This document shows, in pieces, positions 2,783 through 60,112 of a stretch of 64,000 nucleotides of DNA. Origin of the DNA: an uncultured Lachnospiraceae bacterium (GTDB lineage Bacteria; Bacillota; Clostridia; Lachnospirales; Lachnospiraceae); assembly GCA_964571555.1 (NCBI GenBank), contig CAZNCH010000001.1, positions 1,265 to 65,264 on the forward strand. Reading direction: 5' to 3'. The notes under the pieces were generated by a model. It worked only from the letters and a program-made list of their open reading frames with translations, had not been told where the DNA came from and did no database searches. How positions within the stretch are numbered: the first letter of the stretch is position 1; every line of letters begins with the position of its first letter. A program made the position numbers and the translations under genes.

Positions 2783-2791
2783 GGTGAGGTT

Positions 2792-35843: not shown

Positions 35844-35859
35844 TATTTTGGGAGATTCC

Positions 35860-36765
35860 ATGGAGAGAACCGGAAAACCAAGAAAAACCGGAAAGATCTT
35901 ACGGACTTTCTGTGTTTCCGTGGCGGTCTACATCCTTTTGGGCGTGGCCGCCACGGAACTTATATTTGGAATGATTTTCGCAAGAAAATCCGAATTCCTG
36001 TCCTTCCCGTCGCAGTTTTTCGTAGATGCCCGAACGGTTGAATTTCCCGTCGAGGAGCGTCAGCTCACAGGGTATTTGATCGGGGAGAGCGGAGAAAAGG
36101 GTGTCATTGTGATCGCACACGGCATGGACGCTTCCGCGGAAAGTTTTGCGCGAGACGCCAGACGTTTTGAAGAGTCGGGCTACTGCGTTCTGGTTTTCGA
36201 CGGAACCGGCTGCGGGGAGAGCGAAGGGCGGAGCCAGGTCGGCCTGGGTCAGCGCAGAAAGGATCTGATCGGGGCACTCGACTTCCTCGATGCATGCAAG
36301 CTGCGTTCTTCTTCCTACTTCCTCTACGGTCACAGCGCGGGGGGCTATGCCGCGGCGTCTCTATGTAATGACGAGCGGGTTGCCGCCGTTGTTTCCGTAG
36401 CGGCACCCGATTCCACGACGGAGACCATGACCGCCTTCGGAGTTGCAAGAGTCGGAGCGCTCGGTTATCTTGGCTATCCGTTCCTCTTTCTGAAAGAGCG
36501 TCTCCTGTTTGGCGCAGAGGGAACAAGGTCGGCGCATGAATGGCTTCGGGAGAGCGGGACGCCCGTTCTGGTTCTGGAAAGTGAGAGAGACAGGACAATT
36601 CCGCCGCACTTAGGGATAATGAGCCATGCAGAGGAAATCGGCAATCCGCAGGTTTTCTATCAATGGATCGAAACAAAGGGAAGCAACGCGCACACAGAGG
36701 TCCTGGAGGACAGCGGCGCCCTTGCGGAAGCCTTTTTTGCAAAGATCGAACCGTTTGCAGAATAG
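35860..36765 (+). CDS. membrane-anchored alpha/beta hydrolase (paralog 1 of 3)
   Basis: N-terminal TM helix, HG oxyanion region (VIVIAHGM), GHSAGG nucleophile elbow, and later Asp and His. Same family as 41796 and 46679. Confidence 0.7.
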   Translation: MERTGKPRKTGKILRTFCVSVAVYILLGVAATELIFGMIFARKSEFLSFPSQFFVDARTVEFPVEERQLTGYLIGESGEKGVIVIAHGMDASAESFARDARRFEESGYCVLVFDGTGCGESEGRSQVGLGQRRKDLIGALDFLDACKLRSSSYFLYGHSAGGYAAASLCNDERVAAVVSVAAPDSTTETMTAFGVARVGALGYLGYPFLFLKERLLFGAEGTRSAHEWLRESGTPVLVLESERDRTIPPHLGIMSHAEEIGNPQVFYQWIETKGSNAHTEVLEDSGALAEAFFAKIEPFAE

Positions 36766-36825
36766 CGGATTTTGCGGTAGAATAAATTAGTTTGTGTTCA
36801 TTGTTTTTGGAAGGCGGTTTTGGGA

Positions 36826-38778
36826 ATGGAGCGGCTGCAAAATATTGGAGATTATCGTACGGTCAATGCTTATGTAGCCGCGAAACTGGAACGGTTTTTC
36901 GGAATGGAGCGCACGTTTCGCGCATTGTTTCAACTGATGTTTTCCGAGAAAGAGAACGTCATGTATGAGAAGAGCGTCGGCTTTCAAGTTGAAACCACGA
37001 CTTACGGAGAAGCGTTCACGAAAACCTGTGAACTCGCAGGAATTCTGCAAGCGCGCCTGAAAGGGGTTCCGCGGGATTCCGTCATCGGTCTTTATCTGGA
37101 AAACGATCTGTCCTGGATTGAGTTCTTCTGGGCAATTCTTGCCGCGGGTTATCGTCCCCTCCTGCTGAATATCCGACTCGATGATGAAGTTCTGACAGAG
37201 GCATTGGAGGCGGCAGGCGCATGTGCGGTCATTTCTGCGCAGAAGTCCTTTGCGCCGTGCTTCATGCTGTCTGCAGCGGAGTTGTTGCATACGGAAACAA
37301 AGCCGCTCTTTACGGAAGCGGAATTTGGCAGCGAAATTCTGGTGATGTCTTCCGGAACAACACAGACGCCCAAGCTCTGTGCTTACACCGCAGAGGCGTT
37401 TTATTATCAGATCGGGGATTCCGCGGCGATCATCAGAAAAAGCACGCGGATCAAAATGCATTATCACGGACAGTTAAAGCAGTTGACCTTTCTTCCGTTT
37501 TATCACGTATTCGGTCTGATTGCGGTCTATATCTGGTTTGCCTTTTTCTCGAGAACTTTCGTGCATTTGTCGGATTTCAGCGCGGCAACGATTCTTCAGA
37601 CGATCAGAAAACACGAGGTAACGCATATCTTTGCAGTTCCGATGTTCTGGAACACAGTCTATGCGCAGGCGCTGAAAACAATCCGTGATAAGGATAACGA
37701 AACACAAATCAGGTTTCAAAAGGGAATGGCTCTTGCAAAAAAGATCGGCGATGTTCCCGTTTTGGGAGCATGGTTTACGAAGCGCGCTTTCCGTGAGATC
37801 AGAGAGAAGTTGTTCGGCGAGAGCGTCTGTTTTATGATTTCCGGCGGAAGTGAAATTTCAACGGAAGTGCTGACCTTCTTCAATTCGATCGGCTATCATC
37901 TGACAAACGGGTATGGCGCTACGGAAATCGGAATCACCTCCGTAGAGCTCAGAAACAGGAGAAAACCCCGAAACAGCGGTGCCGTCGGACGACCGCTGAG
38001 ATCAGTCGAGTACCGGATTAACGAAGCAGGAGAATTGCTTGTGAGGGGGAAAACAACCGCATCTTATCTGATTGAACGGACAGAAAAGAAGCCCAATGAA
38101 GGCTGGTTCAACACGCACGATCTCGCGGAAGAAAAGAACGGATATTATTATATTCTCGGACGAAAGGATGATCTGGTCGTTTCGGAAACGGGAGAGAATT
38201 TGAACCCGAATCTGATTGAGAGTCTGCTTTCCGAAGGCTTGAGCAACGAGGTCTGTCTGATCGGCCCCAAAGAGAACGGAGCGGTTGTTCCCACCTTGCT
38301 GGTATCGACCGGAAAGAGACTGTCGGAAGAAGAATTTAACGCCTTGCAGAAGCGCTATGTCGAGAAACTTCATGCAACGCACTTAAACGGAGAGATCCGA
38401 AAGATTTTCTTTACGAAGGAACCGCTGATCTATGAAGACGAGATCAAACGGAACCGGACACGTCTGAAAAGAGCTTATCTGGCGGGAAAACTGCCGGAAA
38501 TGAAACCTTATCGGGAGCGCTGCGCCGAACAGCGCAGCCAAACGTTTCGTTACGTGCGGGGACTCTTTGCGGAGGTGCTCCATTGCAAAGAAGAGGAAAT
38601 TACGGGAGAAGGCGACTTCTTTTTAACATACGGCGGAAACAGCCTGGCATATTTTACCGTGATTGCTATTCTGCAGGACGAACTGGGGATTTCTTTCCCG
38701 ATGTCCGAGGGAAAAGGGCTGAATACCGTGAATGAAATCTGCGACTTTATTGAGGAACGGAAAGCAGATGAGAATTAG
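36826..38778 (+). CDS. AMP-dependent (acyl-adenylate forming) ligase fused to a C-terminal carrier-protein domain
   Basis: Adenylation core motifs MSSGTTQTPK, GYGATE and GRKDD. The C-terminal ~80 aa carry the phosphopantetheine attachment motif GGNSL. Confidence 0.8.
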   Translation: MERLQNIGDYRTVNAYVAAKLERFFGMERTFRALFQLMFSEKENVMYEKSVGFQVETTTYGEAFTKTCELAGILQARLKGVPRDSVIGLYLENDLSWIEFFWAILAAGYRPLLLNIRLDDEVLTEALEAAGACAVISAQKSFAPCFMLSAAELLHTETKPLFTEAEFGSEILVMSSGTTQTPKLCAYTAEAFYYQIGDSAAIIRKSTRIKMHYHGQLKQLTFLPFYHVFGLIAVYIWFAFFSRTFVHLSDFSAATILQTIRKHEVTHIFAVPMFWNTVYAQALKTIRDKDNETQIRFQKGMALAKKIGDVPVLGAWFTKRAFREIREKLFGESVCFMISGGSEISTEVLTFFNSIGYHLTNGYGATEIGITSVELRNRRKPRNSGAVGRPLRSVEYRINEAGELLVRGKTTASYLIERTEKKPNEGWFNTHDLAEEKNGYYYILGRKDDLVVSETGENLNPNLIESLLSEGLSNEVCLIGPKENGAVVPTLLVSTGKRLSEEEFNALQKRYVEKLHATHLNGEIRKIFFTKEPLIYEDEIKRNRTRLKRAYLAGKLPEMKPYRERCAEQRSQTFRYVRGLFAEVLHCKEEEITGEGDFFLTYGGNSLAYFTVIAILQDELGISFPMSEGKGLNTVNEICDFIEERKADEN

Positions 38779-39409
38779 ATTGGTTCACTTATTTACAAAA
38801 ATCACGGCGTGGCCGGTGCAGCGGCTCTGTTTCAGAACGAAGATCTATTATGAGGACAGAGCGGCGCAGGGGCGCAGGATCCGGGGCAGCGCCATCGTGG
38901 TATCCAATCATACGTCCATTTACGACTATGCGGTCTATCTGTTTGTGTTTTTCGGCAGAACGCTTCGCGCCCAGATGGCGGAGGTGCTGTTCAAAAAGAG
39001 AATCCTCGGCAGGTATTTAAAATGCATGGGCGGGATCCGTGTCGATCGGAATATCCATGATATGGGATTCATGGCGGAGTCGGAACGGATTCTGAAACAG
39101 GGCGGCGCGGTGATGATTTTTCCGGAGGGGCGACTGCCGCGAAAAGAGGAAACAGAGTTGCTTCCGTTCAAGACAGGGGCGGCATTTCTTGCTTTGTCGA
39201 CCGGCGTTCCCGTGATTCCCGTCTATACGAACGGCTCGTATTTTTGCAGAAAATGCGCGTGTGTGCTGATTGGCAAGCCGATGCTGCTCTCGGAATATGT
39301 CGGGGCGTCAACGGATCCGAGGGAGAATATCAGCGCAGCCAACAGAGCTTTGCGCGCGCGGATTGCGGCACTGGGAGAACTGCTGGATGAGAGAACAAAA
39401 GAGAGTTAA
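38768..39409 (+). CDS. PlsC/LPLAT family acyltransferase 1
   Basis: HX4D motif (SNHTSIYD) and FPEGR block. Its start overlaps the preceding gene by 11 nt. Confidence 0.8.
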   Translation: MRIRLVHLFTKITAWPVQRLCFRTKIYYEDRAAQGRRIRGSAIVVSNHTSIYDYAVYLFVFFGRTLRAQMAEVLFKKRILGRYLKCMGGIRVDRNIHDMGFMAESERILKQGGAVMIFPEGRLPRKEETELLPFKTGAAFLALSTGVPVIPVYTNGSYFCRKCACVLIGKPMLLSEYVGASTDPRENISAANRALRARIAALGELLDERTKES

Positions 39410-40040
39410 GCGTTTTTCTTTCGAATATTTTTTCTATGATTTTGTCAAGGTAACGGCTGCGCTGCCGGGGCTGGTTGCTTTTCGACCGAAGTATTTGTTC
39501 GAGAACGAAAAGGCGAAGCGGCGGATTCGGGGCGGTGCGATCCTGATCGGAAACCACAACGGATATTTTGATCCGATCGGCATGATGCTCTGCGTCTATT
39601 ACCGCAGACACCGTTTTGTCTGCACCAAGGAGTTTTTCGAAGGCAGAAAAGGATTTTTCTTTCGGAACTTTCGGTGTATTGCGATCGATCGCAATAATTT
39701 CAGCGTGGATGCATTTCGGGAGATTGTTGAGAGCCTGCAAAAGGGTGAGATCGTCAGCATGTTTCCGGAGGGCAGGATTATTTTTGACGATGCACTTGCC
39801 GCTTTCAAATCCGGCATGGTGTTGATGGCTATGAAGAGCGGTTGTCCGATCGTTCCGATTTATGTGTTGAAGCGAAGAAACTATTGGGAACGACTGATCA
39901 TGGCAGTCGGCGAACCGGTCGACGTGAGGGAAGCTTTAGGCGGGAAATCCCCGCTTTCCGGCATGGACGCCGTTTCGGAACTGCTGCACGAGAAAGAAGT
40001 GAAATTGAAGAAGTTGTGCGAGGAGGCGCGAGGGAAATGA
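39387..40040 (+). CDS. PlsC/LPLAT family acyltransferase 2
   Basis: HX4D motif (GNHNGYFD) and FPEGR block. Its start overlaps the preceding gene by 23 nt. Confidence 0.8.
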   Translation: MREQKRVKRFSFEYFFYDFVKVTAALPGLVAFRPKYLFENEKAKRRIRGGAILIGNHNGYFDPIGMMLCVYYRRHRFVCTKEFFEGRKGFFFRNFRCIAIDRNNFSVDAFREIVESLQKGEIVSMFPEGRIIFDDALAAFKSGMVLMAMKSGCPIVPIYVLKRRNYWERLIMAVGEPVDVREALGGKSPLSGMDAVSELLHEKEVKLKKLCEEARGK

Positions 40041-41545
40041 AAACAAAAGGGAGAGAGGTGTTCGAAAAATATACAACGCCCGAAACGATGGAACGGATCA
40101 GGGAAGTTGCGACCGTATCCCGGATGTGGGAGCATTGTCTTGATGCGTATAGCGATAACGAAGCAATCAGCGATAACGGCGTGTCTTACACCTTTGCGCA
40201 AATAGAGGCGCGTGCGTCCCGCCTGCGGGGGCTGCTCTTAAAAGAACATGACGCGGCAAAGCGGATCGGACTCTATATGACGAATTCCGTCAGTTTCGCG
40301 GAAGCCTTTCTTGCGATTGTAACCGCCGGCTTCACTGCGGTCATACTGCCGCCGCAGTTGGATGATAAAGCCGTATTCGGCTGCTGCATGAAGTTCGACA
40401 TCGGAACGCTGCTGTATCTTCCTTCGATGGAAGAAAAGGTACAGACGGCGGCGAAAATGGCGCCCGGGATCAAGTTGTTTCCTGCTGATGTTAAGACGTT
40501 GGAAACAGCGCAGATTCAATCCTGTGACGCGACGACGCCGTGCGTTGTGATGTTTACCGGGGGAACAACGGGACAGAGTAAGGGCGCGCTGTTGAGCAAC
40601 GGTGCGGTGATGCAGGGCGTGGTCAACGGCTGCTACGGATATCGGGATGTTTTCGAGCAGAGGTATTTTCTGGTGCTTCCGCTTTCCCATGTCTTCGGTT
40701 TGATTCGGAATCTGCTGACTTCATTCTATACGGGCAGTTCCCTGTTTATCTGCAAAAACAATATGGATATGTTCCGCGACATCGCGATGTTCAAACCCAC
40801 CGTTTTGGTTGTGGTTCCGGCGCTCGCGGAAATGGCGCTGAAACTTTCCAAACAGTTTGGCAGGAATATGCTCGGGCCCGACATGAAATATGTGATCTGC
40901 GGCGCGGCAGCCGTTGCGCCGTATCTGCTCAGCGAGTACCGCAAGTTCGGGATCAGCCTGTTTCCGGGATACGGTTTGACGGAATCTGCGAATCTGGTGT
41001 CCGGAAATCCGGAAACGGTGGAGAAGCCGGACGCCGTCGGGATTCTGTACCCGAATCAGGAATACCGAATCGAGGAAGGCGAGCTCTGGCTCAGGGGAAG
41101 CAATATCATGGACGGTTACATCGGAGAGCCGGAAACCGGCATGGAGGACGGCTGGTTCAAAACCGGCGATCTGGTGAAGGTCGATGCGGACGGTTTCCTC
41201 TATATTGTCGGCAGGAAGAAAGAAGTGATCGTTCTGGCAAACGGTGAAAATGTATCGCCTGCGGAAGTGGAAGCGAAGTTCAACCGTCTGAAGTTCGTGC
41301 AGGATTCTCAGGTATTCGAGGACGTGACCGAGGGCGGAACGCATATTCTTGCGCTGGAAATCGTGCCGAGAGTCTCTGAACTGAACGACGTTGCGCAGGA
41401 AGATCGGAACACCTATATGATGGCGGCGCTGGAACAGGTCAATGCGACGCTGCCGGGTTATCAGAGGGTCAACCGCATGGAAATACGGGAAACGGATTTC
41501 GAAAGAACGCCGAGTATGAAGATTGTGAGATATCATAAATGCTGA
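40037..41545 (+). CDS. AMP-binding acyl-CoA/acyl-ACP synthetase-like ligase
   Basis: Motifs FTGGTTGQSKGA, GYGLTE and GRKKE. ATGA start/stop overlap with the preceding gene. Confidence 0.85.
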   Translation: MKTKGREVFEKYTTPETMERIREVATVSRMWEHCLDAYSDNEAISDNGVSYTFAQIEARASRLRGLLLKEHDAAKRIGLYMTNSVSFAEAFLAIVTAGFTAVILPPQLDDKAVFGCCMKFDIGTLLYLPSMEEKVQTAAKMAPGIKLFPADVKTLETAQIQSCDATTPCVVMFTGGTTGQSKGALLSNGAVMQGVVNGCYGYRDVFEQRYFLVLPLSHVFGLIRNLLTSFYTGSSLFICKNNMDMFRDIAMFKPTVLVVVPALAEMALKLSKQFGRNMLGPDMKYVICGAAAVAPYLLSEYRKFGISLFPGYGLTESANLVSGNPETVEKPDAVGILYPNQEYRIEEGELWLRGSNIMDGYIGEPETGMEDGWFKTGDLVKVDADGFLYIVGRKKEVIVLANGENVSPAEVEAKFNRLKFVQDSQVFEDVTEGGTHILALEIVPRVSELNDVAQEDRNTYMMAALEQVNATLPGYQRVNRMEIRETDFERTPSMKIVRYHKC

Positions 41546-41802
41546 GGAACAGAAGTGAAATATTAGAACAGTTGAAACAGGTGCTGCGCTCTGCGGATGA
41601 GAGCAAGGCGGCAATCATCGAAGCCTGCACGGAAGAAGCGAATCTGGCGACGGATTTGGGTCTTTCCTCGGTTGGGCTGCTCTATGTGGTCATCTCCATC
41701 GAGGAACAGTTCGGGATTCGATTTGAAAACGTGGGAATTGCCGATTTTGTTACCGTCAGAGACGTGGTAGATTACATTGAGGGACGCTCGGGCACATGCT
41801 GA
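41539..41802 (+). CDS. acyl carrier protein
   Basis: 87 aa with the attachment-site motif DLGLSSVG. Overlaps both neighbours by 7 nt. Confidence 0.8.
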   Translation: MLRNRSEILEQLKQVLRSADESKAAIIEACTEEANLATDLGLSSVGLLYVVISIEEQFGIRFENVGIADFVTVRDVVDYIEGRSGTC

Positions 41803-42734
41803 TCTTGAGAATAGCGCTGACGATATTCGTCTTGTATGTGATTTTCCTTTTAGGTCCGTCGATCGTGATGTATTTCAGGCTTTTTGTTCCGCGGTCGGGA
41901 ACGCCTTATGAAGAGAGGAATCTGCGCGGAACTTATCTTGAGAAGCACAGGGAACGGATACGGGAAGACAGCGCATATTTCAAAACGCAGAAATGCGAAG
42001 AGGTCAAGGTGATCTCGCAGGACGGCGTCAGGCTGTACGGAGAGTTCTACGGGGAGAATCATTCCGAAGTCGTATTATGCGTGCACGGGTACTTATCGAC
42101 GCCGCTCAACTGCTTTTCAACCATGGGGAAGTTCCTGCTGGAAGACGGCTACGGCGTGCTTCTGATTCATCAGCGCGGAAACGGAAAAAGCGAAGGCAGG
42201 CGGGGCGGCTTCGGGTTGATCGAATGTAATGATCTTTCGCTTTGGATTCGAAGTTTACGTGAGCGCGGAGCGAAACACATCTTCCTCGCGGGCATGTCCA
42301 TGGGCAGCGCAACGATCTGCTATGCGTCTCCGTTCTTAGAACAGCCGCCGGTTGCCGGCATGATCCTTTGCTGCGGTTTTGTTTCGCCCTATCGGCTGCT
42401 ATCGGATGCCTGCGATGAAAAGCATCTGCCGACGCGCCTGCTCCTGCCCCATATCGAATTTCTGGCAAGGTGGCGCTTAAAGATTGACCTTAAGGAGACG
42501 ACCGATGCGTCTCTTGAAAGAAACCGGATCCCGTCGCTTTTCGTGCACGGAACAGAGGACGCTTCGGTGCCCCTCTCAGACAGCAGGAGTCATTATGAGC
42601 ATTGCAGCGCAGAGAAACGCCTCTGCATTGTGGAAGGCGCCGGTCATTCCGATCTTTTTCTGATCGGAGAGGACGCGGGTCGCGCCGTAAAAGAATTTGT
42701 GGAACAACACAGCGAACGGAGAATGTCAAATTGA
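41796..42734 (+). CDS. membrane-anchored alpha/beta hydrolase (paralog 2 of 3)
   Basis: N-terminal TM helix, GMSMGS nucleophile elbow, and HGTEDASV / GAGHSD acid and His motifs. Confidence 0.75.
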   Translation: MLILRIALTIFVLYVIFLLGPSIVMYFRLFVPRSGTPYEERNLRGTYLEKHRERIREDSAYFKTQKCEEVKVISQDGVRLYGEFYGENHSEVVLCVHGYLSTPLNCFSTMGKFLLEDGYGVLLIHQRGNGKSEGRRGGFGLIECNDLSLWIRSLRERGAKHIFLAGMSMGSATICYASPFLEQPPVAGMILCCGFVSPYRLLSDACDEKHLPTRLLLPHIEFLARWRLKIDLKETTDASLERNRIPSLFVHGTEDASVPLSDSRSHYEHCSAEKRLCIVEGAGHSDLFLIGEDAGRAVKEFVEQHSERRMSN

Positions 42735-43666
42735 GTGACTTTGTAATTATGGCAGATTCAACCTGCGATCTGCCGGAGGAATTCCAGAAGAAGTATGATG
42801 TTATTGTGCTGCCGGGGCACGTGATTTTACCGGACAAATCAGAGGTTCTTTCCAGACCGAAATGGGAATATTTTGAGAGAGAGTCTTTCTATGAGCAGCT
42901 TCGGAACAATCCCGACGGCTTCGTTACGGCGCCGCCGAATGTCAGCGAATTCACGGCGGCATACGAGGAATACGCAAAACAGGGGAAGGACATCCTCTGC
43001 CTGACAATATCAAGCGGGATCAGCGGTGCATTTAATTTCAGCACCCTTGCCAGAGAAGCGGTGTTAAGGAAATATCCCAATGCCAGAATCATCAATATCG
43101 ATTCGATGCGATTCGGTCCCGGCTTCGGTCTGATGGTTGTGTATGCCGCAACGCTGCGCAGCGAAGGGTTGTCCATCGAAGATGTGGCGCAGCAGATTGA
43201 AACGAAGAAGAATACTTTTCATCAGGCGGGATGGCTCGACGATCTGTCTTTCGTCGCCAAGAAGGGAAGAATCACACACGCCAAAGCCTTTTTCGGTTCT
43301 CTTGCCGGGGTGAAGCCGATCGGAGAATTCGACTATAACGGTCTGACGACGGTGATCGGAAAGGCGAAGGGCGCCAAATCCGCCTATGCGGTTCTGCTGC
43401 AATATATCGAGCAGACCATCGTGGATCCGAAGAACCAGATCATTTTTATTGCGCAGTCCAACCGGCTGAAGCAAGCCGAACAATACAAGCAGATGATCCT
43501 GGAGAAATTTCATCCGAAGGAGATCTATATCAACGATGTATTCCCGTCCTGCGGCGTGAATATCGGTCCGGGGCTGATGGCGGCATACTATATGGGAACA
43601 CCGATATCCAAAGATCTTTCCAGAGAAAGGGAGATCCTTGAAAAGGCAATGAACCAAGGGGGTTGA
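42731..43666 (+). CDS. DegV family fatty-acid-binding protein (FakB-like)
   Basis: DegV N-terminal pattern (V)IMADSTCDLP and the family length. The TTG at 42731 (TTGA overlap, GGAGA RBS) is preferred. The ATG at 42749 is the alternative start. Confidence 0.8.
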   Translation: MSDFVIMADSTCDLPEEFQKKYDVIVLPGHVILPDKSEVLSRPKWEYFERESFYEQLRNNPDGFVTAPPNVSEFTAAYEEYAKQGKDILCLTISSGISGAFNFSTLAREAVLRKYPNARIINIDSMRFGPGFGLMVVYAATLRSEGLSIEDVAQQIETKKNTFHQAGWLDDLSFVAKKGRITHAKAFFGSLAGVKPIGEFDYNGLTTVIGKAKGAKSAYAVLLQYIEQTIVDPKNQIIFIAQSNRLKQAEQYKQMILEKFHPKEIYINDVFPSCGVNIGPGLMAAYYMGTPISKDLSREREILEKAMNQGG

Positions 43667-43668
43667 AG

Positions 43669-46667: not shown

Positions 46668-46678
46668 GAGGTGGAAGT

Positions 46679-47623: not shown

Positions 47624-48746
47624 TCGAAAATCAAAGAACAGAAAGAGAATGCCCGGCGCTAACGTGATTGCAGCAGCATGCGGAAGCGCCCTCTTGTTGT
47701 GCGGCTGTAATCAGACAGCGCCTGCTGCCGAAGCCGTGATTCCGCACAAGACCTATCAGAAACTGGAATATGTCACAACCGTGGTACAGAAGGGCGATAT
47801 GAAACCGGTGCTGACCTTGAAACTGAAGGCGCAGCTCGGCACGCAAATCCGCTATACGGTGAATTTGGCGGACGCCGAGGTGGATGAAGTCTATGTGAGC
47901 ACGGGAGACAAGGTAGTCAAGGGGCAGCTTCTGGTCTCCTTCAAGTCCGAGAAAACGAAAAAGGAAATTGAGAACTACAGGGCGGAGCTCGAAGAAAAAC
48001 AGTTGATGCTCGATCATTATACCAGAATGTCTCTGTTTGATTTACAGGAGCGGGAATATTACGAAAAAGAGCGGAAGGAGTATCCGCTTTATCAGCAGCA
48101 GGAAGATGAGATCAACAAAGAACGGGATCAGGAGAGCAAACGCCGGAAGGCGGCGGATTACAGTTTCACTGTACAACAGTTGCAATCGGATGTGGATCTG
48201 GCGGCGCTCTATCTGGAAGAAGCAACTGCCAGACTTGAGAATTGTCAGATTCGGGCAGAAGAGGACGGCGTCATCTCCTTTATGAGTCAGGGCTTGCTCA
48301 GCGGCTATGTACAGCCCGGCGAAACCCTGATGAACGAAAACTGCGGAGAGAATACCTACGCCGCCTATACCAGGGACGACTATGATTTTCGGATCGAAGA
48401 CAGTTTTACGGCGGAGGACGAGAACGCTTCCTACAAAATGACGGTGACGCAGACGAGCGGAGAAGACGACGGGACGAGACGAATCGTGTTCGTACCGGAT
48501 GCGACGCTGCTCAATCCGCCGGAGGGGGAAGCGCTTACCATGACCATCGAGAAGACCCGTTTGTTCGACGTGGTCTATGTGGAAAAGGGAGCAATCGCAA
48601 CCAAGGGAGAGCAATCTTTCGTCTATCTGGTATCGGAGAACGGCTTTCTTGACGCAAGAGAAGTGGAAACGGGGGAAGTCGTAGAGAATATGGTTGTAAT
48701 TAAAAAGGGTTTGAACGGGAACGAAAAGGTGGCAGTGATCAAATGA
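47610..48746 (+). CDS. HlyD/MacA-family membrane fusion (periplasmic adaptor-like) lipoprotein
   Basis: Lipobox LLCGC, a lipoyl-like hairpin (VYVSTGDKVVKGQLLVSF), a coiled-coil stretch, and beta-barrel/membrane-proximal segments. Confidence 0.75.
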   Translation: MRIFNRKSKNRKRMPGANVIAAACGSALLLCGCNQTAPAAEAVIPHKTYQKLEYVTTVVQKGDMKPVLTLKLKAQLGTQIRYTVNLADAEVDEVYVSTGDKVVKGQLLVSFKSEKTKKEIENYRAELEEKQLMLDHYTRMSLFDLQEREYYEKERKEYPLYQQQEDEINKERDQESKRRKAADYSFTVQQLQSDVDLAALYLEEATARLENCQIRAEEDGVISFMSQGLLSGYVQPGETLMNENCGENTYAAYTRDDYDFRIEDSFTAEDENASYKMTVTQTSGEDDGTRRIVFVPDATLLNPPEGEALTMTIEKTRLFDVVYVEKGAIATKGEQSFVYLVSENGFLDAREVETGEVVENMVVIKKGLNGNEKVAVIK

Positions 48747-51004
48747 GAAAACAGACATTTGGAAAGTGCGTGTGGGGGGTCATGGCGGCGTGCCTGCTGC
48801 TTGGCGGGTGTAAGGATGCAAGAGAGGTCCCGGCGCTGATCGAACCGGTTGCCGCCAACCAGTCGTTTCGACCGGTGGAGAGAAGAAATATCGGGAAAAT
48901 CCATGTTTCGATTGGAAATGTAGTGGCGGCGGAGGATTGCTATTACTATAAAAAGGTCACAACGATCAAGGAAATCCGTGTCAATGTCGGACAGCGGGTC
49001 GAAGAAGGCGACATTCTGGCGACGGCGGATCTGGAAGCGCTGGAGAATGAACTGGAGGATATTTCCGATCAAAGGGCATATTTCAGTGCGCTTCATGACG
49101 CCAACCAGCCCTTGTATCCGCTCCGGCTCGATCTGATCGACGTCGATAAACGCAGTTACGTCAACAGAGAGGACGGAAAGAGCGCTGCGGAGTGCGATAA
49201 TAAGACCAATCTGGAAAAAGAGAACTATCTCTACGACGAGAAACTCTTTGAGTACCAGATGAGACAACTTGCAAAGCGAGCGGAAGAAGTAAGGGAACAG
49301 ATTGCGGACGCGACGCTTAGGGCAACCAGGGCAGGCGTGGTCACCTACATTAAAAACACCGGCAAAAACAATGTGGCAAGGATAAACGAAGTCGTCGTGA
49401 TCGTGGCGGATGAAAACGACGTTTACATCGAAACGCCGGATCAGACCACCGAGGTGAACAAGTATAAGAAATACGAAGTGAAGTATGCGCTGATCGACGG
49501 GAAGGAGATTCCGGTTACGGAAGTGGAATATACGGACGATGAAACGATCTATGCAAGGGCGCAGCGCAGTTATCCCTGTATCCGTTACAAGACGCAGGAG
49601 CCGACTGATCTGAAGCCCGGAAATTCCGTCGTGCTCTGTTTCTTTCAGAAGGATCGGACCCGGGCGCTGTGTGTCGGTTCGGATTCCCTGAACTCGGATG
49701 ACGTCGGGAACTATGTCTATGTGAAAGGAAACGGGGATGAACTTGAAAAGCGCTACGTGTTAACCGGTGCTTCTGACGATTATTTTACGGAGATCCTTGA
49801 CGGGTTGGAGGAAGGAGAAGCGGTCTTCTATGTGCAGGAAATCGCGTCCCCCGTGAACTACAAAGAATATCGGGTCGAGAGTCGGGAGTATACGCAGACC
49901 TATATGAGCCTGAAACTGCGAGAGGGGCAGACCTTGAATCAGGCATATTTCGCCCCCTGCTTGGGAACCGTGAAGGAGATCCGTGTGGATCAGGGGAAGT
50001 GGGTAAAAAAGGGAGATGTGCTCATGGTCATTGATACCGGAGGCGGCGCTTCCGCGATTCAGGAGATTGTCAATGAGAAGAACCGGATCAAGGCGGATTA
50101 TGATAAGACGGTCAACAGTCTGGACGGGCAGCTCTATGATACAACCGCGCAAAAGGAGATTACAACGATAGAGGCAGGTATGTTCCACATGTGCGAACCG
50201 GATTATTTATTTGCCATGGAACGGGCGCAGATCCAGCAGAAGATGGCGGTTTACCAGAAGGAAGTGGCGAAGGCGGAGTATGAAGGGAGAATCAGACAGT
50301 GCAACAGGCGCCTGGAGCGCGTAAAAAAGGATAATGACGGCGCCGGTCTGGTCAGTGTAGTAGCGGAAGAGGACGGTATGATTTCGCGGATTCATGTCAA
50401 GGAAGGCGCTCTCATTAAGGAAAACGGCGAGAATCATCTCCTGTTGTCCTGCGCCGCTTACACACCGGATATCGTGGCGGTTTCGGTAAACACCATTCTC
50501 TCGCTTTCGTTGAACGGAAGAGTGAACGGCGTCTGTCCGATCGGAGCAAAGGTGCGAATCGTAGATTCGGAGGATGATTCGATCGCTTTCTCCGGCGTCT
50601 GCGTCAGCAATGCGTGGGATACAAAAAGTTATGCCTTTACCGAAGAAGACGGACGTGCGCGCGCGGTGACAATCAGCGATGAAGACAATAAAGAGAATTA
50701 CTTCTATGTCAAAATGGATGATCCCGAGTTTCTGGAGAAGCTCAACGTCAACAAAGCCGCAGCTTATCTGGACACGATGCAGGGGGAGAACATGATTGCG
50801 ATTCCTGCGCGGCTGCTCTACAAAGAGGAGAGCAAGACCGATAAAAAGGAAAAGTATTTCGTCTGGAAACTGCAGGACGGAAATCCCGTCAAGCAGTATG
50901 TGATCAGAGGTACGGAGTACGGTCTCGGAAATGAAACGGAAACAGTGATCCTGCAAGGAATCTCGAACGGAGATATTCTGGCGGATGAAGGAAATCATCA
51001 GTAG
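48743..51004 (+). CDS. tandemly duplicated HlyD/MacA-family membrane fusion lipoprotein (two complete adaptor modules in one chain)
   Basis: Lipobox LLLGGC. There are two lipoyl-type motifs (IKEIRVNVGQRVEEGDILATAD and VKEIRVDQGKWVKKGDVLMVID). Each is followed by a coiled coil, a second half-lipoyl (RAGVVTYI / DGMISRIHVKEG) and beta-rich domains. Confidence 0.7.
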   Translation: MRKQTFGKCVWGVMAACLLLGGCKDAREVPALIEPVAANQSFRPVERRNIGKIHVSIGNVVAAEDCYYYKKVTTIKEIRVNVGQRVEEGDILATADLEALENELEDISDQRAYFSALHDANQPLYPLRLDLIDVDKRSYVNREDGKSAAECDNKTNLEKENYLYDEKLFEYQMRQLAKRAEEVREQIADATLRATRAGVVTYIKNTGKNNVARINEVVVIVADENDVYIETPDQTTEVNKYKKYEVKYALIDGKEIPVTEVEYTDDETIYARAQRSYPCIRYKTQEPTDLKPGNSVVLCFFQKDRTRALCVGSDSLNSDDVGNYVYVKGNGDELEKRYVLTGASDDYFTEILDGLEEGEAVFYVQEIASPVNYKEYRVESREYTQTYMSLKLREGQTLNQAYFAPCLGTVKEIRVDQGKWVKKGDVLMVIDTGGGASAIQEIVNEKNRIKADYDKTVNSLDGQLYDTTAQKEITTIEAGMFHMCEPDYLFAMERAQIQQKMAVYQKEVAKAEYEGRIRQCNRRLERVKKDNDGAGLVSVVAEEDGMISRIHVKEGALIKENGENHLLLSCAAYTPDIVAVSVNTILSLSLNGRVNGVCPIGAKVRIVDSEDDSIAFSGVCVSNAWDTKSYAFTEEDGRARAVTISDEDNKENYFYVKMDDPEFLEKLNVNKAAAYLDTMQGENMIAIPARLLYKEESKTDKKEKYFVWKLQDGNPVKQYVIRGTEYGLGNETETVILQGISNGDILADEGNHQ

Positions 51005-51012
51005 GTGGAGAA

Positions 51013-53865
51013 ATGCTGCAACTCATCAAGAATAAGATCAAAAACAAAAAATTGCTGAATTTAAGCCTTCTGACAGGCGTGATTCTCCTTGCGGGTCTGC
51101 TCTGCGTCTACCCGATCTTTCGAGAGGGGAGTCTGAACCGGCTCCTCATGACGATGTTTACGGACGCCATTGAGGAAAAAGAGCAATACCCTGCGGTCAT
51201 CATGCGGAACGGACTACTGGCGGAAGAGGATTTCACCTCTGTTGACTCCATTCTTGCCGAAATGGACGCCTATGAGAAAAAGTGGGGTGAGAAAATTACT
51301 GCACCCGTCGTGGAACGACAACGCCTGATTCGCATTCCCGGCGGAAACGCAGAGACCAGTTTCGGTGAAAAATCACGGGTCGTAACGCTGGGCTATGTGC
51401 CAGAGTTATATGAACATGCAGACGTCGTGTACGGCGTTGCCGCGGATCGTGCGGAACAATCCGATAACGAATATGTGTTGGATGCCTTGCGTTTGGGCGC
51501 TTATCCCTGCGTGATCTCGCAGACGACGATGGATAAATACGGGCTGGTGGTCGGCGAACAACTCTCGTTTAAATTCAGACTTTACGGGGATCCGACGCCC
51601 TATGATTTCGTGATAACAGGCATCGTTGAAGAAAAGGAAAATGACGGTCGCTACTGGTACAGCCGGTTACGCGAGAACGATAAGATGCTCTTTGTGAACA
51701 AAGATGATTTTAACGAACTCGTGATTCTGTCGGAGAGTGCGGAGATTCGCTATGAAGCGGAAGTGATGTATGACTTTTCAAAGATCAACTGTAAGAATGC
51801 ACCCGAATATCTGGATGCATTAATCGCTTTCAAAGCGGAAGATGAGCACCTGTACCCCAATTTCGATCATACGCTGAGCCGTTATCTCGAGCAGGAAAAG
51901 GCAATCAGTGTGATCCTGCTCACCTTTGAACTGCCGATAGTGGCACTTTTACTGCTTTTCCTTTATATGATTTCGGATCGGATCCTTGAAATGGAGACAA
52001 CGGAAATCTCCATGTTGAAGAGCCGCGGCGTCAGCCGAGCGAAAATCATCGGTCTCTATGTCGGTCAGTCTTCTCTGATCGCTTTGATCGGCTGTATCAT
52101 CGGCTTGCCGGTGGGCTTCTTTCTGTGCAGGCTGGCAGCAGGCACAAACGCCTTTCTTTCGTTCTCCATGAAAGACGTCGGCACTTATTTGCCGACTCCC
52201 ATGATGCTGCCGTTTGCAGCGCTTGCTTTTGTCCTGTCCGTGCTTTTCATGACGCTTCCCGTGATCGCTCTTTCGCGGCTTACGATCACAGACAGGAAGG
52301 GAAAAAGAATCTCCCTGCATCACATCCCGTTTTGGGAGAAGGCGTTCCTCGATGTGCTGCTGTTGGGCGTATCAGGCTATCTTCTCTACAACTATTACAA
52401 ACAGAGCGAAGAAATGTCGGCGCGCATCATCGGCGGCGGCAGTATCGATCCCGTGATTTTTCTCGATTCAACGCTGTTTATCCTATCCTGCGGTCTGCTC
52501 TTTATCCGCCTTACGGGATATCTGGTAAGGCTGATTTATCGGCTCGGCAGAAAACACTGGAAACCGGCGACCTTTGTCGCTTTCATGCAGATCATCCGCG
52601 GGGTCGGAAAGCAGGGCTTCATCTCCGTTTTTCTTGTGATGACGATTGCCATGGGGGTCTTCAATGCGAATCTCGCAAGAACCGTCAATGAGAATGCGGA
52701 ACGAAGAACAAGTTACAATCTCGGCACGGATTTAAGACTGCAGGAGAAGTGGAAGTTAACGACGATCCGCGTGAACCCTACCGACCCGACGCCGCTCTGG
52801 AACTATTCCGAGCCCGATTTCGAACGGTACAGATTCTTAGAGGAGTTCGGCGCAGAAGAGATGACGCGGGTCATCTGTGACGAAAATACGGATCTTGTGA
52901 TCGATAAGAAGGTGGAGAAGGGGAATACCCTGATGGCGATTCACACAAAGGAATTCGGAGAGACGGCAACACTGCCGGAAGGCGTGAATGACGTGCATTG
53001 GTTTCATTACCTGAACCAGCTGGCAAAGCTTCCGAACGGGGTGCTTATTTCAAGCAATCTTGCGCAGAAATACAGTCTCAAAGAAGGGGATAAAATCAAA
53101 TATGAAAGATACAGCCCTGTGAATGAGAAAGAGCCGTATCAGACCGTGGAGGCGAAGATCTGCGGCATTGTCGATGCGTTCCCGGGCTATGAGAGCGCAG
53201 CCTACACCGCAAAAGAGGACGGAACGGTAGAGCTTCGCGAGAACTATCTTGTAGTTGCCAATTATGCGACTGTGGTGAATGATTTCTCCATCACCCCATA
53301 CCAGATCTGGATTCGTCTGAGGAATTACGCGGATTCCGATCAGATGGAGCGCGCAATCGAAGATGCGGGAATCACGCTGACATCCTTTACGTCTCTGGAG
53401 AGAGAGATCCAGGATCAGCGGGATTCCGCGATGATCCAGATTACCAACGGGATGTTCTCCGTCGGGTTTATTATTTCGCTGTTGATCTGCGCGGTCGGTT
53501 TTCTGATCTATTGGATCCTGACCATTCGGGAGAGAGAACTGCTCTACGGAATCTATCGGGCAATGGGGATGAGTATGCGTGAGATCCAGAAAATGCTGGT
53601 AACGGAGCAGATTTTCAGTTCGCTTCTGGCAGCAGTGTCCGGCTTCGGCGTCGGCGCAGTGACGACGCTGCTGTTCACAAAGTTGATTTCCATCGTATAT
53701 CTGCCGCGGAAACATAATCTTCCGATTGAAATTGCGATGAAGCCGGAGGACAGCATCAAAATGGTGGTGATCATCGTGATCGCGTTCGCCGTTTGCTTCT
53801 ATATCATGCGCAAAACAATCCGAAACATGAACATTACACAGGCCTTGAAGATGGGAGAGGATTAA
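51013..53865 (+). CDS. ABC transporter permease with two MacB/FtsX-type modules
   Basis: 950 aa. The pattern TM - large extracytoplasmic domain - 3 TM occurs twice, and the C-terminal FtsX-type helices are recognisable. Confidence 0.8.
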   Translation: MLQLIKNKIKNKKLLNLSLLTGVILLAGLLCVYPIFREGSLNRLLMTMFTDAIEEKEQYPAVIMRNGLLAEEDFTSVDSILAEMDAYEKKWGEKITAPVVERQRLIRIPGGNAETSFGEKSRVVTLGYVPELYEHADVVYGVAADRAEQSDNEYVLDALRLGAYPCVISQTTMDKYGLVVGEQLSFKFRLYGDPTPYDFVITGIVEEKENDGRYWYSRLRENDKMLFVNKDDFNELVILSESAEIRYEAEVMYDFSKINCKNAPEYLDALIAFKAEDEHLYPNFDHTLSRYLEQEKAISVILLTFELPIVALLLLFLYMISDRILEMETTEISMLKSRGVSRAKIIGLYVGQSSLIALIGCIIGLPVGFFLCRLAAGTNAFLSFSMKDVGTYLPTPMMLPFAALAFVLSVLFMTLPVIALSRLTITDRKGKRISLHHIPFWEKAFLDVLLLGVSGYLLYNYYKQSEEMSARIIGGGSIDPVIFLDSTLFILSCGLLFIRLTGYLVRLIYRLGRKHWKPATFVAFMQIIRGVGKQGFISVFLVMTIAMGVFNANLARTVNENAERRTSYNLGTDLRLQEKWKLTTIRVNPTDPTPLWNYSEPDFERYRFLEEFGAEEMTRVICDENTDLVIDKKVEKGNTLMAIHTKEFGETATLPEGVNDVHWFHYLNQLAKLPNGVLISSNLAQKYSLKEGDKIKYERYSPVNEKEPYQTVEAKICGIVDAFPGYESAAYTAKEDGTVELRENYLVVANYATVVNDFSITPYQIWIRLRNYADSDQMERAIEDAGITLTSFTSLEREIQDQRDSAMIQITNGMFSVGFIISLLICAVGFLIYWILTIRERELLYGIYRAMGMSMREIQKMLVTEQIFSSLLAAVSGFGVGAVTTLLFTKLISIVYLPRKHNLPIEIAMKPEDSIKMVVIIVIAFAVCFYIMRKTIRNMNITQALKMGED

Positions 53866-53866
53866 G

Positions 53867-54697
53867 ATGGAATATATGATAGAAACCAGACAGATTCATA
53901 AAAGTTTTCCTCTCGGCAACAAAGAAACGCTGGAAGTCCTGAAAGGGATCGATCTCAAAATCGAAAAGGGAAAACTGACGATTCTGAAAGGAAGATCCGG
54001 CTCGGGGAAAACAACGCTGTTAAATATTCTAAGCCTGCTGGATGCACCGACAAAAGGTGAACTTCTGATCGACGGCGAGGAAATGAAAGAGAAAAGCGAG
54101 GTCGAAAAAGAGAAGATCCGAAGATATCATATCGGCTTCGTCTTCCAGTCGGTTGCGCTGCTGCCGATCCTTTCCGCTTATGAAAATGTGGAGTTCGGCA
54201 TGAGGCTTGCCGCATATGAAGGAAACATGGACGAAAGGATTCGAAATGTCTTAAGGATCGTCGGACTGCAGAAGCGCATGGGTCACATGCCCGCGCAGAT
54301 GTCCGGCGGTGAACAGCAGAGAGTCGCAATTGCGAGGGCGGTCGCCCACAGTCCCAAGATCATCTTCGCAGACGAGCCGACAGGGGCGCTGGATACGGAT
54401 TCCGGTCTTGCGATCATGAAACTGTTTCGGGAGCTGATTGAGAAAGAGGGCATCACGATTGTCATGACAACGCACGACCCGAATCTGATGCAGCTTGGAG
54501 ACGTCGTCTATGAAATGGAAGACGGGGAACTGACGCTGATTGCCGAAGAAAACGAAGCGGAACCGATTGAGGAGACTCTTTCGGAGACAGCAACAGAAGA
54601 AAAAACAGAAAAAAGGGAAACAGTGAACAAAGAAACAGACGCAACAGAAAAGGAAACGGACAATGGAGCAGAAGAAGGAAGAGATTCTGGTTTGTGA
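53867..54697 (+). CDS. ABC transporter ATP-binding protein 1 (MacB/LolD type) with an acidic low-complexity C-terminal tail
   Basis: Walker A GRSGSGKTT, signature MSGGEQQRVA, Walker B IFADEP. The ~50-aa tail is rich in E, T and K. Confidence 0.9.
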   Translation: MEYMIETRQIHKSFPLGNKETLEVLKGIDLKIEKGKLTILKGRSGSGKTTLLNILSLLDAPTKGELLIDGEEMKEKSEVEKEKIRRYHIGFVFQSVALLPILSAYENVEFGMRLAAYEGNMDERIRNVLRIVGLQKRMGHMPAQMSGGEQQRVAIARAVAHSPKIIFADEPTGALDTDSGLAIMKLFRELIEKEGITIVMTTHDPNLMQLGDVVYEMEDGELTLIAEENEAEPIEETLSETATEEKTEKRETVNKETDATEKETDNGAEEGRDSGL

Positions 54698-55568
54698 CGG
54701 ACTGGTGAAAATATTCAAGACAGACGAAGTGGAAGTGATGGCGCTGCAAGGGCTGGATCTTACGATTAAACGAGGGGAACTCGTCGCCATTATCGGGAAA
54801 AGCGGCAGCGGGAAATCAACGCTTTTGAATATGATCGGCGGTCTGGATCGACCGACGGCGGGAAGAATCTATGCGGACGGAAATGATCTCTTTGCAATGA
54901 CGGAGCAGCAGTTGGTGGAATATCGGCGGAGCACGGTCGGTTTCGTCTGGCAGAACAGCGGGCAGAATCTGTTTTCTTATCTGACCGCCGTACAGAATGT
55001 GGAAGCGCCGTTATATTTTGAGCGGATGGGCGACAAGGAGAGAAGAGAACGCGCCATGGAACTTCTGAAGCGAACCGGCGTCGAGCACAAGGCAGACGCC
55101 TACCCGACCCAGATGTCCGGCGGAGAACAGCAGAGAGTTGCGATTGCGGTGGCGCTGGCGAACGATCCGAAGATTCTGCTGGCAGACGAACCGACCGGTT
55201 CTGTGGATTCGAAGACATCCAATCGGATTCAGGATTTGTTCCGGAAGTTAAATGAGGAAACCGGACTGACGATCATTATCGTGACGCACGATATCAGTCT
55301 TGCAAACAAGGTGTCCCGTGTGATTATGGTCTCCGACGGTAAGATCAGTACGGAGAAAATCATGAAGGAAGCGTACCGGAAGAAGTTGGATGAATTGTCA
55401 ACCGAGACGTTAAAGGAAATAGAGTCGCATGAAGAATATTCGGTGCTTGACAAGGCAAGGCGCGTCCAACTCAGTGAAGACGCATTGCAGGAAGCGGGGA
55501 TTGACAGTCACATGGTAAAAGTGGAAGTTGTCGACGGAAAAATCGTGATCTCAAAGCAGGACGCGTGA
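54663..55568 (+). CDS. ABC transporter ATP-binding protein 2 (MacB/LolD type) with a ~75-aa C-terminal extension
   Basis: Walker A GKSGSGKST, signature MSGGEQQRVA, Walker B LLADEP. It overlaps the preceding gene by 35 nt and the extension ends ...RRVQLSEDALQEAGIDSHMVKVEVVDGKIVISKQDA. Confidence 0.9.
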   Translation: MEQKKEEILVCDGLVKIFKTDEVEVMALQGLDLTIKRGELVAIIGKSGSGKSTLLNMIGGLDRPTAGRIYADGNDLFAMTEQQLVEYRRSTVGFVWQNSGQNLFSYLTAVQNVEAPLYFERMGDKERRERAMELLKRTGVEHKADAYPTQMSGGEQQRVAIAVALANDPKILLADEPTGSVDSKTSNRIQDLFRKLNEETGLTIIIVTHDISLANKVSRVIMVSDGKISTEKIMKEAYRKKLDELSTETLKEIESHEEYSVLDKARRVQLSEDALQEAGIDSHMVKVEVVDGKIVISKQDA

Positions 55569-58351: not shown

Positions 58352-58367
58352 AAAGAGAGGTAGTTCC

Positions 58368-59468: not shown

Positions 59469-59483
59469 CACGGGGGACTACAG

Positions 59484-60067: not shown

Positions 60068-60112
60068 TAAAGTTGGTGGTTATTTCGGTAATAATCACCA
60101 ACTTTTTATTTT
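60068..60112 (+). terminator. rho-independent terminator of the flagellin operon
   Basis: ~16-bp stem AAAGTTGGTGGTTATT / AATAATCACCAACTTT with one G-U pair, followed by TTTTATTTT. Confidence 0.75.

Follow-up and report, generated by a model that had tools for sequence, protein, structure and literature searches.

We analyzed a run of closely packed genes in a 64,000-nucleotide (nt) stretch of DNA from an uncultured Lachnospiraceae bacterium (GCA_964571555.1, contig CAZNCH010000001.1, positions 1,265 to 65,264 of the forward strand), which is called the window below. Between 35.4 and 55.6 kb the window carries 17 genes in succession, all on the + strand. A first-pass annotation, made from the letters alone, had joined 15-16 of these genes (35860-55568) into one system that scavenges lipids, re-acylates them and exports the product. 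On balance, we favor a different reading: the tightly packed run would be made up of two units that evolved independently and happen to adjoin each other here. Unit 1 (35442-47623, 12 genes) is probably an operon for the salvage and re-acylation of exogenous acyl lipids, and unit 2 (47610-55568, five genes), an ATP-binding cassette (ABC) exporter, a mere neighbor of it. The core lipid operon is real and conserved. The earlier view of one conserved system held for the lipid-handling genes but not for the exporter, which was adjacent to them in none of 46 related loci.

Conservation was analyzed by scanning one genome per GTDB species with an alignment of the major facilitator superfamily (MFS) protein of the cluster as the query, which gave 176 relatives. 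The locus counts rest on the best 80 of these 176 relatives, whose loci were fetched with 10-kb flanks and compared with all window proteins by tblastn; the denominators are the loci reaching each position. Genes for a fused adenylate-forming ligase and carrier (AL_ACP), two lysophospholipid acyltransferase (LPLAT) family proteins (AT1 and AT2), a stand-alone ligase (AL2), an acyl carrier protein (ACP), a hydrolase (hyd2), a DegV protein, the MFS transporter, a FakA-like kinase and another hydrolase (hyd3) kept this order, all on a single strand, in 90-100% of the loci. AL_ACP was present in 54/54 loci, AT1 in 59/60, AT2 in 61/61, AL2 in 56/62, ACP in 62/66, hyd2 in 68/72, DegV in 75/75, FakA in 67/68 and hyd3 in 64/65, and these core genes were tightly spaced in the related loci too. 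In most loci, one to three zinc-ribbon genes and then a further hydrolase gene, hyd1, lie 3' of hyd3; in the window and eight other loci hyd1 is found upstream of AL_ACP instead. The gene-neighborhood comparison across Clostridia that had been proposed as a check therefore gave a divided answer, in that the lipid genes co-occur in order and the exporter genes do not.

Conservation of the operon extends to at least 60 species-level genomes, and its carriers are uncultured Clostridia of the rumen and of the gut, both herbivore and human. The sole match not labeled as a metagenome-assembled genome (MAG), P0304, sits on a short contig of GCA_045544755.1, which nothing marks as a cultured isolate. 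One 9.4-kb contig that consists of little besides the cluster (L065) comes from a MAG labeled Candidatus Ornithospirochaeta (Spirochaetota); this copy could be due to mis-binning or to horizontal transfer.

The results for the exporter were quite different. No homolog of its adaptors or of its FtsX permease was found by tblastn in the 80 cluster loci, and the block of two adaptor genes, the permease gene and two ATPase genes (MFP-MFP-FtsX-ABC-ABC) occurred in 0 of the 46 cluster loci that extend at least 3 kb past hyd3. The permease has about 90 homologs, mostly in Lachnospiraceae MAGs, and the five-gene module was intact in four other genomes, L083 (76% identical), L084 (62%), L085 (52%) and L086 (44%). 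In L083 and L084 the module is followed by genes for DUF6240, flagellin, FliS, a prepilin peptidase and a type II secretion system ATPase. This is also the downstream side of the window, where DUF6240 (902 aa), flagellin and FliS are encoded at 55643-59963, 3' of the module; L083 has one extra unannotated gene (499 aa) between the module and DUF6240. Upstream, both genomes have GlgB and no lipid cluster, and L083 has in addition a divergent two-component system adjoining the module. In L085 and L086 the module stands in two further unrelated contexts with different neighbors. Because L083 and L084 share with the window both the module and the genes that follow it, the exporter seems to be part of the lineage backbone, which the lipid cluster adjoins only here. 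Taken together, these comparisons indicate that the exporter is independent of the lipid cluster, with no evolutionary coupling between the two, and synteny contradicts the functional coupling that had been claimed for them. The proposal that the ABC exporter exports or inserts the product of the pathway likewise fares badly, given an autonomous module in four other genomes and no case of adjacency in the 46 loci.

The close packing of the two units was as described earlier in most points. All 16 open reading frames (ORFs) predicted for 35860-55568 proved real, with their strand (+) and coordinates, and all the domain calls made for them were confirmed by Pfam and NCBIfam; a zinc-ribbon membrane gene at 35442-35843, which belongs to the conserved set, had been overlooked. 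An independent gene call, available for a public 122-kb metagenomic scaffold to part of which the window is identical, agreed with the first-pass annotation on the start of 13 of the 16 genes. It placed the start of the MFS gene at 43669, 6 nt later, that of the third hydrolase gene at 46679, leaving an 11-nt gap in place of a 22-nt overlap, and that of the first adaptor gene at 47649, leaving a 25-nt gap in place of a 14-nt overlap. In the sequence, ATGA overlaps do occur at 40037, 45012 and 48743, and a TTGA overlap at 42731. The longer overlaps at 38768 (11 nt), 39387 (23 nt), 41539 and 41796 (7 nt each) and 54663 (35 nt) were seen as well, but the one reported at 47610 (14 nt) depends on the start chosen for the adaptor. 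The packing is tight as had been claimed, although a limit of 11 nt for every gap was too strict: whichever set of starts is used, no gap between 36826 and 55568 exceeds 25 nt. The hydrolase gene at 35860-36765 does sit 60 nt before the ligase-carrier gene.

We also looked for signals that might divide the run. In agreement with the absence of terminator hairpins noted before, a promoter and terminator scan gave weak terminator-like matches alone; there were 36 such sites, where 21.5 ± 5.2 were expected, and all lay inside coding sequence. Promoters gave weak consensus matches only. Not until 60069-60105, 3' of fliS, is there a strong hairpin with a T-run. Read-through co-transcription of units 1 and 2 in this strain is therefore possible. 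At gathering thresholds, Rfam returned no riboswitch or leader near the cluster; its sole match in the window was a bacterial small SRP RNA at 26285-26384 (+) (RF00169, 78.9 bits).

The core enzymes are all of acyl-activating, acyl-transferring or ester-cleaving types, and their catalytic motifs are intact according to Pfam, NCBIfam and alignments. AL_ACP (36826-38778, +) is an adenylation-carrier (A-T) didomain protein (Pfam AMP-binding and PP-binding) with a conserved P-loop, SSGT..K, and a conserved carrier motif, GGNS606L (GGxS606); its nearest solved relatives, with weak scores, are MenE and 4-chlorobenzoate ligases. AL2 (40037-41545, +; Pfam AMP-binding and AMP-binding_C_3) has conserved motifs A3, A5, A7 and A8 and a conserved K495, and its top NCBIfam matches are long-chain fatty-acid CoA ligases, none of them near cutoff. 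The neighbors of the two ligases in the PDB and NCBIfam do not discriminate between substrates because fatty-acid, aryl and short dicarboxylic-acid ligases are mixed among them. The stand-alone ACP (41539-41802, +; 87 aa; Pfam PP-binding, with NCBIfam ACP models below cutoff) has a conserved D39-x-G41-x-x-S44 motif. AL2 was absent in L004, L006, L014, L019, L076 and L078, and the stand-alone ACP was retained in L004, L006, L014 and L019. Since these four loci keep the ACP without AL2, the fused ligase may load both carriers.

Between AL_ACP and AL2 lie the genes of the two LPLAT/PlsC-family proteins (PF01553), AT1 (38768-39409, +) and AT2 (39387-40040, +). Both contain the HX4D and FPEG(T/R)R blocks of this family, with Pfam scores of 79 and 81 bits against a cutoff of 23, and in about 60 homologs of each we found conserved H48x4D53 and FPEGR in AT1 and H57x4D62 and FPEG in AT2. 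The only solved relative found for AT1 was PlsC of T. maritima (5KYM), and for AT2 the best NCBIfam match, with a score far short of the cutoff, was to the acyltransferase portion of an LplT-Aas fusion model.

A further gene stands between ACP and hyd2 in 57 of the 80 loci. It encodes an LRAT-like protein and/or a 4'-phosphopantetheinyl transferase (PPTase), usually fused, though some loci carry only the LRAT half or only the PPTase half. In the fusion gene L001:7049-8092, an LRAT/NlpC-P60 domain (PF04970) with the catalytic motif NCEHF is joined to the PPTase, which is weakly Sfp/AusB-like. No copy of this gene was found in the window by tblastn, and our literature search found no description of an LRAT-PPTase fusion. 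The cluster thus has the parts of a carrier-dependent system, namely an adenylation domain, a carrier with its Ser motif and, in most relatives but not in the window, an Sfp-type PPTase. Domain scans found no condensation or ketosynthase domain, as would be used in chain building, in any core gene.

The DegV protein (42731-43666, +) is a cluster-specific form of a putative FakB-like fatty-acid-binding protein (Pfam DegV, 199 bits; TIGR00762, 203 bits, above the cutoff of 99.7), and among solved structures it is best related to FakB2 of S. aureus (4X9X). T66, S94, S98 and R180 are conserved, and Asn277 occupies the position of the FakB His in 76 of 78 sequences. The kinase (45012-46667, +) is a cluster-specific paralog of the FakA/YloV-type DAK2 kinases; it contains the Dak2 domain, the middle Zn domain (FakA-like_M) and the C-terminal FakB-binding domain (FakA-like_C) and scored 463.7 bits with TIGR03599 (cutoff 396.1). 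D39-G-D-T-G43, C241, H286 and H288 were conserved in 68 sequences. The generic YloV and DegV models were the only NCBIfam models whose cutoffs were reached in the cluster. L018, a rumen Clostridia MAG, has a canonical FakA-DegV-GNAT-PlsX operon (L018:16497-21181, -) about 3 kb from its cluster, and the FakA of this operon is 38% identical to that of the window. Because L018 carries the canonical pair as well, we suggest that the cluster pair in L018 is a specialized paralog.

The transporter (43669-45015, +) belongs to the GPH/MFSD2 type (Pfam MFS_2, 92.9 bits against a cutoff of 27), although it missed the stricter GPH model TIGR00792 (45 bits against 231). Its homologs are numerous, 57-77% identical and all from Clostridia MAGs. 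D74 and D78, an Asp-x3-Asp pair in an early helix, are invariant; they presumably lie at the cation-binding position of MelB and MFSD2A. A sequence search of solved structures gave no match at E <= 0.01, and for this reason we built a model and searched with its fold. The AlphaFold model (pLDDT 81) matched MFSD2A best in Foldseek (TM 0.72-0.74) and then MelB, within a range of 0.70-0.74 for the two. The earlier assignment to an MFSD2/MelB type was thus borne out, and the modeled fold makes a cation-coupled importer of amphipathic lipid the probable identity of this protein.

Three hydrolases are encoded in unit 1, and all were predicted to be anchored in the membrane. Hyd1 (35860-36765, +; Pfam Hydrolase_4 and Abhydrolase_1) and hyd2 (41796-42734, +; Pfam Hydrolase_4) are alpha/beta hydrolases with a Ser nucleophile; the conserved residues are G-H-S159-A-G, D244 and H278 in hyd1 and G-M-S168-M-G, D255 and H284 in hyd2. 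The third enzyme, hyd3 (46679-47623, +; Pfam Hydrolase_4), has the same type of fold with a Cys in the nucleophile elbow, G-I-C-I-G. This Cys aligns with the catalytic Ser of the PF2001 esterase (5G59), is invariant in 33 database homologs and is at least 90% conserved in 66 locus homologs. In the model of hyd3 (pLDDT 93.6) an anchor helix is seen at the N terminus. The closest fold matches of this model were the PF2001 esterase, monoacylglycerol lipases and PlaF, a membrane phospholipase, and a feruloyl esterase was also among the neighbors. On an alpha/beta fold, a Cys nucleophile favors acyl transfer over hydrolysis, as in PhaC and in Cys-thioesterases, which suggests a role in acyl transfer more than in hydrolysis for hyd3.

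We compared the charges that flank the anchors by the positive-inside rule. In hyd1 the N-terminal flank was richer in K/R in 28 of 35 homologs, and in hyd2 the C-terminal flank was richer in 59 of 68. This predicts that the domain of hyd1 lies outside and that those of hyd2 and hyd3 lie on the cytoplasmic face. All three had been taken for surface-exposed enzymes, which is doubtful since only hyd1 was predicted to face outward. The zinc-ribbon gene zn (35442-35843, +; start from the independent gene call) encodes a small membrane protein with Zn_Ribbon_1 and DUF4190 domains (Pfam) and two hydrophobic segments; sequence comparison places it as an accessory member of the conserved lipid cluster.

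Two weak NCBIfam matches point to exosortase A systems, that of AL2 to an associated acyl-CoA ligase (TIGR03098) and that of hyd1 to an associated hydrolase 1 (TIGR03100). The exosortase A-associated set of Proteobacteria likewise pairs a ligase and an ACP with hydrolases and is uncharacterized. A fourth lipase-like gene of the window lies outside the cluster, directly after a methionyl-tRNA synthetase gene (17783-18715, +); it encodes a soluble full-length Hydrolase_4 protein (145.6 bits) of the monoacylglycerol-lipase/lysophospholipase type.

What could such a set of genes do? The core encodes four kinds of chemistry: the activation of carboxylates (two adenylations, one phosphorylation), the transfer of acyl groups to hydroxyls, ester cleavage or transfer, and import by a symporter-family protein. 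Domain scans found no scaffold-building enzyme in it, that is, no ketosynthase, condensation domain, glycosyltransferase or reductase. Uptake and re-esterification of an external acyl lipid is the simplest model. Gene content, motifs, folds and conservation were observed, and from these we infer what the substrates are, which way transport runs and how the steps follow one another in the scheme below. The outward-facing Ser hydrolase hyd1 would free lysolipids and fatty acids from dietary or host lipid, and the MFSD2/GPH-type transporter would bring in a lysolipid-like amphiphile at the expense of a cation gradient. DegV would bind free fatty acids, which the FakA paralog could phosphorylate. 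Fatty acids might also be adenylated and loaded on two dedicated carriers, one by the fused A-T protein and the other by the AL2 and ACP pair, and AT1 and AT2 would then re-acylate lyso-acceptors at two positions from the acyl-carriers. The cytoplasm-facing hyd2 (Ser) and hyd3 (Cys) may trim or shuttle acyl groups at the membrane. In most genomes the LRAT-PPTase fusion, lost in the window version, would prime the carriers, and its LRAT domain may trim or shuttle acyl groups as well.

For the direction of transport we rely on analogy: the MFS_2 family and the nearest folds, MFSD2A and MelB, are importers, and the invariant Asp pair is in keeping with this. We regard the operon as specialized and not as housekeeping, in view of the canonical FakA-DegV-PlsX genes that L018 has besides and of the LRAT-PPTase gene that stands in the cluster in 57/80 loci.

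Several points weigh against this reading. The loci were ascertained by way of the MFS gene, and all conservation figures are therefore conditional on its presence. The topology of the hydrolases comes from a crude positive-inside count over homologs. The transporter shares no more than 16-17% identity with MFSD2A, whose score is hardly better than that of MelB. Because the His of FakB is lacking, the ligand of DegV may not be a plain fatty acid, and the residues at this site suggest that either the ligand or the chemistry of the kinase may differ from those of canonical FakB. The exporter follows the cluster after at most 25 nt with no terminator between them, so that co-expression and even co-option are possible. 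The nearest solved relatives of the ligases are MenE and 4-chlorobenzoate, feruloyl, oxalyl and malonyl ligases as much as fatty-acid ligases. Lastly, the NRPS-like GGxS motif of the fused carrier and the in-cluster Sfp-type PPTase, which are hallmarks of specialized metabolite synthesis, point to specialized metabolism.

These last points are the substance of an alternative in which the operon is a biosynthetic cluster for a specialized acylated metabolite or membrane lipid. Two acids would be activated on two carriers, the LPLATs would transfer them to a small polyol or lipid acceptor, hyd3 would release or transacylate the product, and the MFS protein would export it or import a precursor. 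Besides the A-T didomain with its NRPS-type motif, the PPTase found in the cluster in most genomes and ligases that resemble aryl or short-acid ligases about as much as fatty-acid ligases, the Cys nucleophile of hyd3 and a patchy distribution, restricted to certain uncultured Clostridia, are consistent with it. However, domain scans found no condensation, ketosynthase, reductase or tailoring enzyme, the transporter family and its nearest folds are importers, and three lipase/esterase-like hydrolases fit catabolic release better. In addition, the FakA/DegV pair is a salvage device in every case studied so far (PMC10146087). We consider a biosynthetic role unlikely.

Somewhat less likely still is the remodeling or repair of endogenous lipids in a bacterial Lands cycle. 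In such a cycle the acyl chains of the cell's own phospholipids would be replaced, for example after damage or under stress by toxic unsaturated fatty acids in the rumen, and the MFS protein would flip lysolipids back from the outer leaflet like LplT. The architecture indeed resembles that of LplT-Aas, which repairs envelope lysophospholipids (PMC13170283). Of the three hydrolases, hyd2 and hyd3 have a predicted cytoplasmic orientation, most loci encode an LRAT-like phospholipid acyltransferase, and the fold of hyd3 resembles PlaF, a phospholipase of membrane remodeling. The same gene set fits salvage equally well, though, and sequence alone does not separate repair from salvage. The outward prediction for hyd1 and the presence of a FakA/DegV paralog beside a canonical pair, which suggests a distinct stream of exogenous substrate, both argue against an endogenous cycle.

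Some MacB-type transporters, LolCDE among them, handle lipids and lipoproteins, and the best scores of the unit 2 ATPases are with LolD, MacB and DevA models; nevertheless, the integrated system of all 15-16 genes, in which the MacB-type transporter exports or inserts the re-acylated lipid, is very improbable despite gaps of at most 25 nt and no convincing terminator between hyd3 and the first adaptor gene, because the exporter is adjacent in 0/46 related cluster loci and autonomous in four other genomes, two of which keep the downstream synteny of the window without the lipid cluster, and is flanked in L083 by a divergent two-component system, a feature typical of peptide- or toxin-resistance modules.

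A bolder form of the salvage reading is that the 12-13 genes of the operon form a self-contained route by which diacyl membrane lipids are built wholly from imported lysolipids and fatty acids. Hyd3 would then be a new transacylase that moves acyl groups from the acyl-phosphate made by FakA, or from lipid esters, to carriers or acceptors, and the LRAT-PPTase fusion would load the carriers straight from phospholipid. We hold this form to be doubtful. If it is true, the operon marks gut and rumen Clostridia that are lipid-dependent and so far uncultured, and it points to a supplement for bringing the carriers into culture. We also considered the processing of feruloyl esters, as a feruloyl-CoA synthetase and a feruloyl esterase occur among the structural neighbors, but rejected it as the principal function given the lipid specificity of the LPLATs, DegV/FakA and the LRAT domain.

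The five genes of unit 2 all lie on the + strand. The first adaptor, MFP1 (47610-48746, alternative start 47649), is an HlyD/YknX-like lipoprotein of 378 aa with a lipobox-like LLLCGC; the Pfam scan of the window gave no match for it, and it was identified by the NCBIfam model RND_mfp (56 bits, below cutoff) and carries CzcB_C in precomputed Pfam. The second, MFP2 (48743-51004; 753 aa; lipobox LLGGC), has a Biotin_lipoyl_2 domain (Pfam; HlyD was below cutoff) and matched RND_mfp over residues 164-361 and type_I_hlyD over residues 408-527. Both adaptors thus have lipoprotein-like signal sequences. The permease (51013-53865; 950 aa) has two FtsX stretches (82.6 bits), MacB_PCD (37.7 bits) as an extracytoplasmic MacB-like domain and about 10 hydrophobic segments; no NCBIfam model matched it. 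Of the two ATPases (Pfam ABC_tran), ABC1 (53867-54697) is nearest to the DevA, LolD, FtsE and MacB-type models of NCBIfam and ABC2 (54663-55568) to the LolD and MacB-type models, all below cutoff. The combination of an FtsX-fold permease with MacB_PCD, HlyD-type adaptors and LolD/MacB-like ATPases classes unit 2, by its domains, as a Gram-positive MacB/YknXYZ-type efflux module. Splitting it off from the lipid operon avoids a misleading annotation of the latter as an export system.

Elsewhere in the window, a MatE efflux transporter with a C-terminal GNAT acetyltransferase domain, an unusual combination, is encoded at 297-2153 (-; 618 aa). The stretches 2363-5341 (+) and 5414-6964 (+) hold genes for a repressor of the metal-sensing CsoR type, a heavy-metal P-type ATPase that has HMA domains and probably serves copper efflux, and, after these two, an MBOAT-family membrane O-acyltransferase.

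The operon consists of known parts in a conserved and undescribed combination, with some unusual members. Our literature search found no description of this gene combination or operon, which agrees with the earlier remark that it is not recognizable as a described pathway. In Gram-positive bacteria, the known routes for external fatty acids run through FakAB and PlsX. In the operon, a FakAB paralog is combined with an MFSD2-type transporter, a pair of PlsC-like enzymes and two lines of carrier loading. Direct conversion of fatty acids to acyl-ACP has been stated as not documented in Clostridia (10.1101/2025.09.11.675017, a 2025 preprint). The operon offers candidates for lysolipid import in Gram-positive bacteria, for position-specific re-acylation and for Cys-type alpha/beta-fold enzymes at the membrane. 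It could help to explain how rumen bacteria handle dietary lipid and, if it underlies a lipid dependence, could guide the cultivation of these lineages.

We finally compared both units with known systems. Unit 2 shares with YknXYZ of B. subtilis and MacAB of E. coli the FtsX-fold permease, the MacB-like extracytoplasmic domain, the HlyD-type adaptors and the LolD/MacB-like ATPases, and faint YknX-type matches were seen for it in precomputed Pfam. It differs in its fused double-FtsX permease of 950 aa, in its two different ATPases and in its two adaptors, one of which has 753 aa, and, unlike MacAB, it has no outer-membrane partner.

For the lipid operon, the MFS protein shares the MFS_2 family with MelB and MFSD2A, the vertebrate Na+-dependent lysophosphatidylcholine symporter, and has its best fold match there, but identity is only 15-17%. 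The LRAT domain has PF04970 in common with the LRAT/PLAAT (H-RAS-like suppressor) acyltransferases, whereas the cluster form is usually fused to an Sfp-type PPTase. In common with FakA/FakB of S. aureus and Streptococcus, the cluster pair has all three FakA domains, a kinase that passes the YloV cutoff and a DegV protein nearest to FakB2, in which Thr, Ser and Arg of the carboxylate site are retained. It differs in that the His of this site is replaced by an invariant Asn, in that the kinase and DegV genes are parted by the MFS gene within a 12-gene operon, and in that neither PlsX nor PlsY is encoded in the cluster.

With LplT-Aas the cluster has a logic in common, namely a co-encoded MFS lysolipid transporter, PlsC-family acyltransferase and adenylate-forming maker of acyl-carrier thioesters, and AT1, AT2 and AL2 matched the fusion models PRK08633 and PRK06814 with 30-120 bits, where the cutoffs exceed 1100. 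The likeness of the parts to LplT-Aas and FakA/FakB noted in the first-pass annotation was seen here as well. The Aas equivalog level was not reached, as PRK08043, PRK08633 and PRK06814 scored 26-121 bits against cutoffs of 886-1349, and the transporter is of the MFS_2/GPH type and not of the LplT type (MFS_1, TC 2.A.1.42; MFS_1 28.5 bits, cutoff 33.4). Moreover, the functions of Aas are divided among several proteins and occur twice, in two lines; AcpP is replaced by dedicated carriers; and the host, being Gram-positive, lacks an outer membrane that would need repair. By analogy, the core would work like LplT-Aas and FakAB combined, but it is a member of neither, as its transporter belongs to MFS_2, its Aas scores are far below cutoff and its DegV lacks the FakB His.

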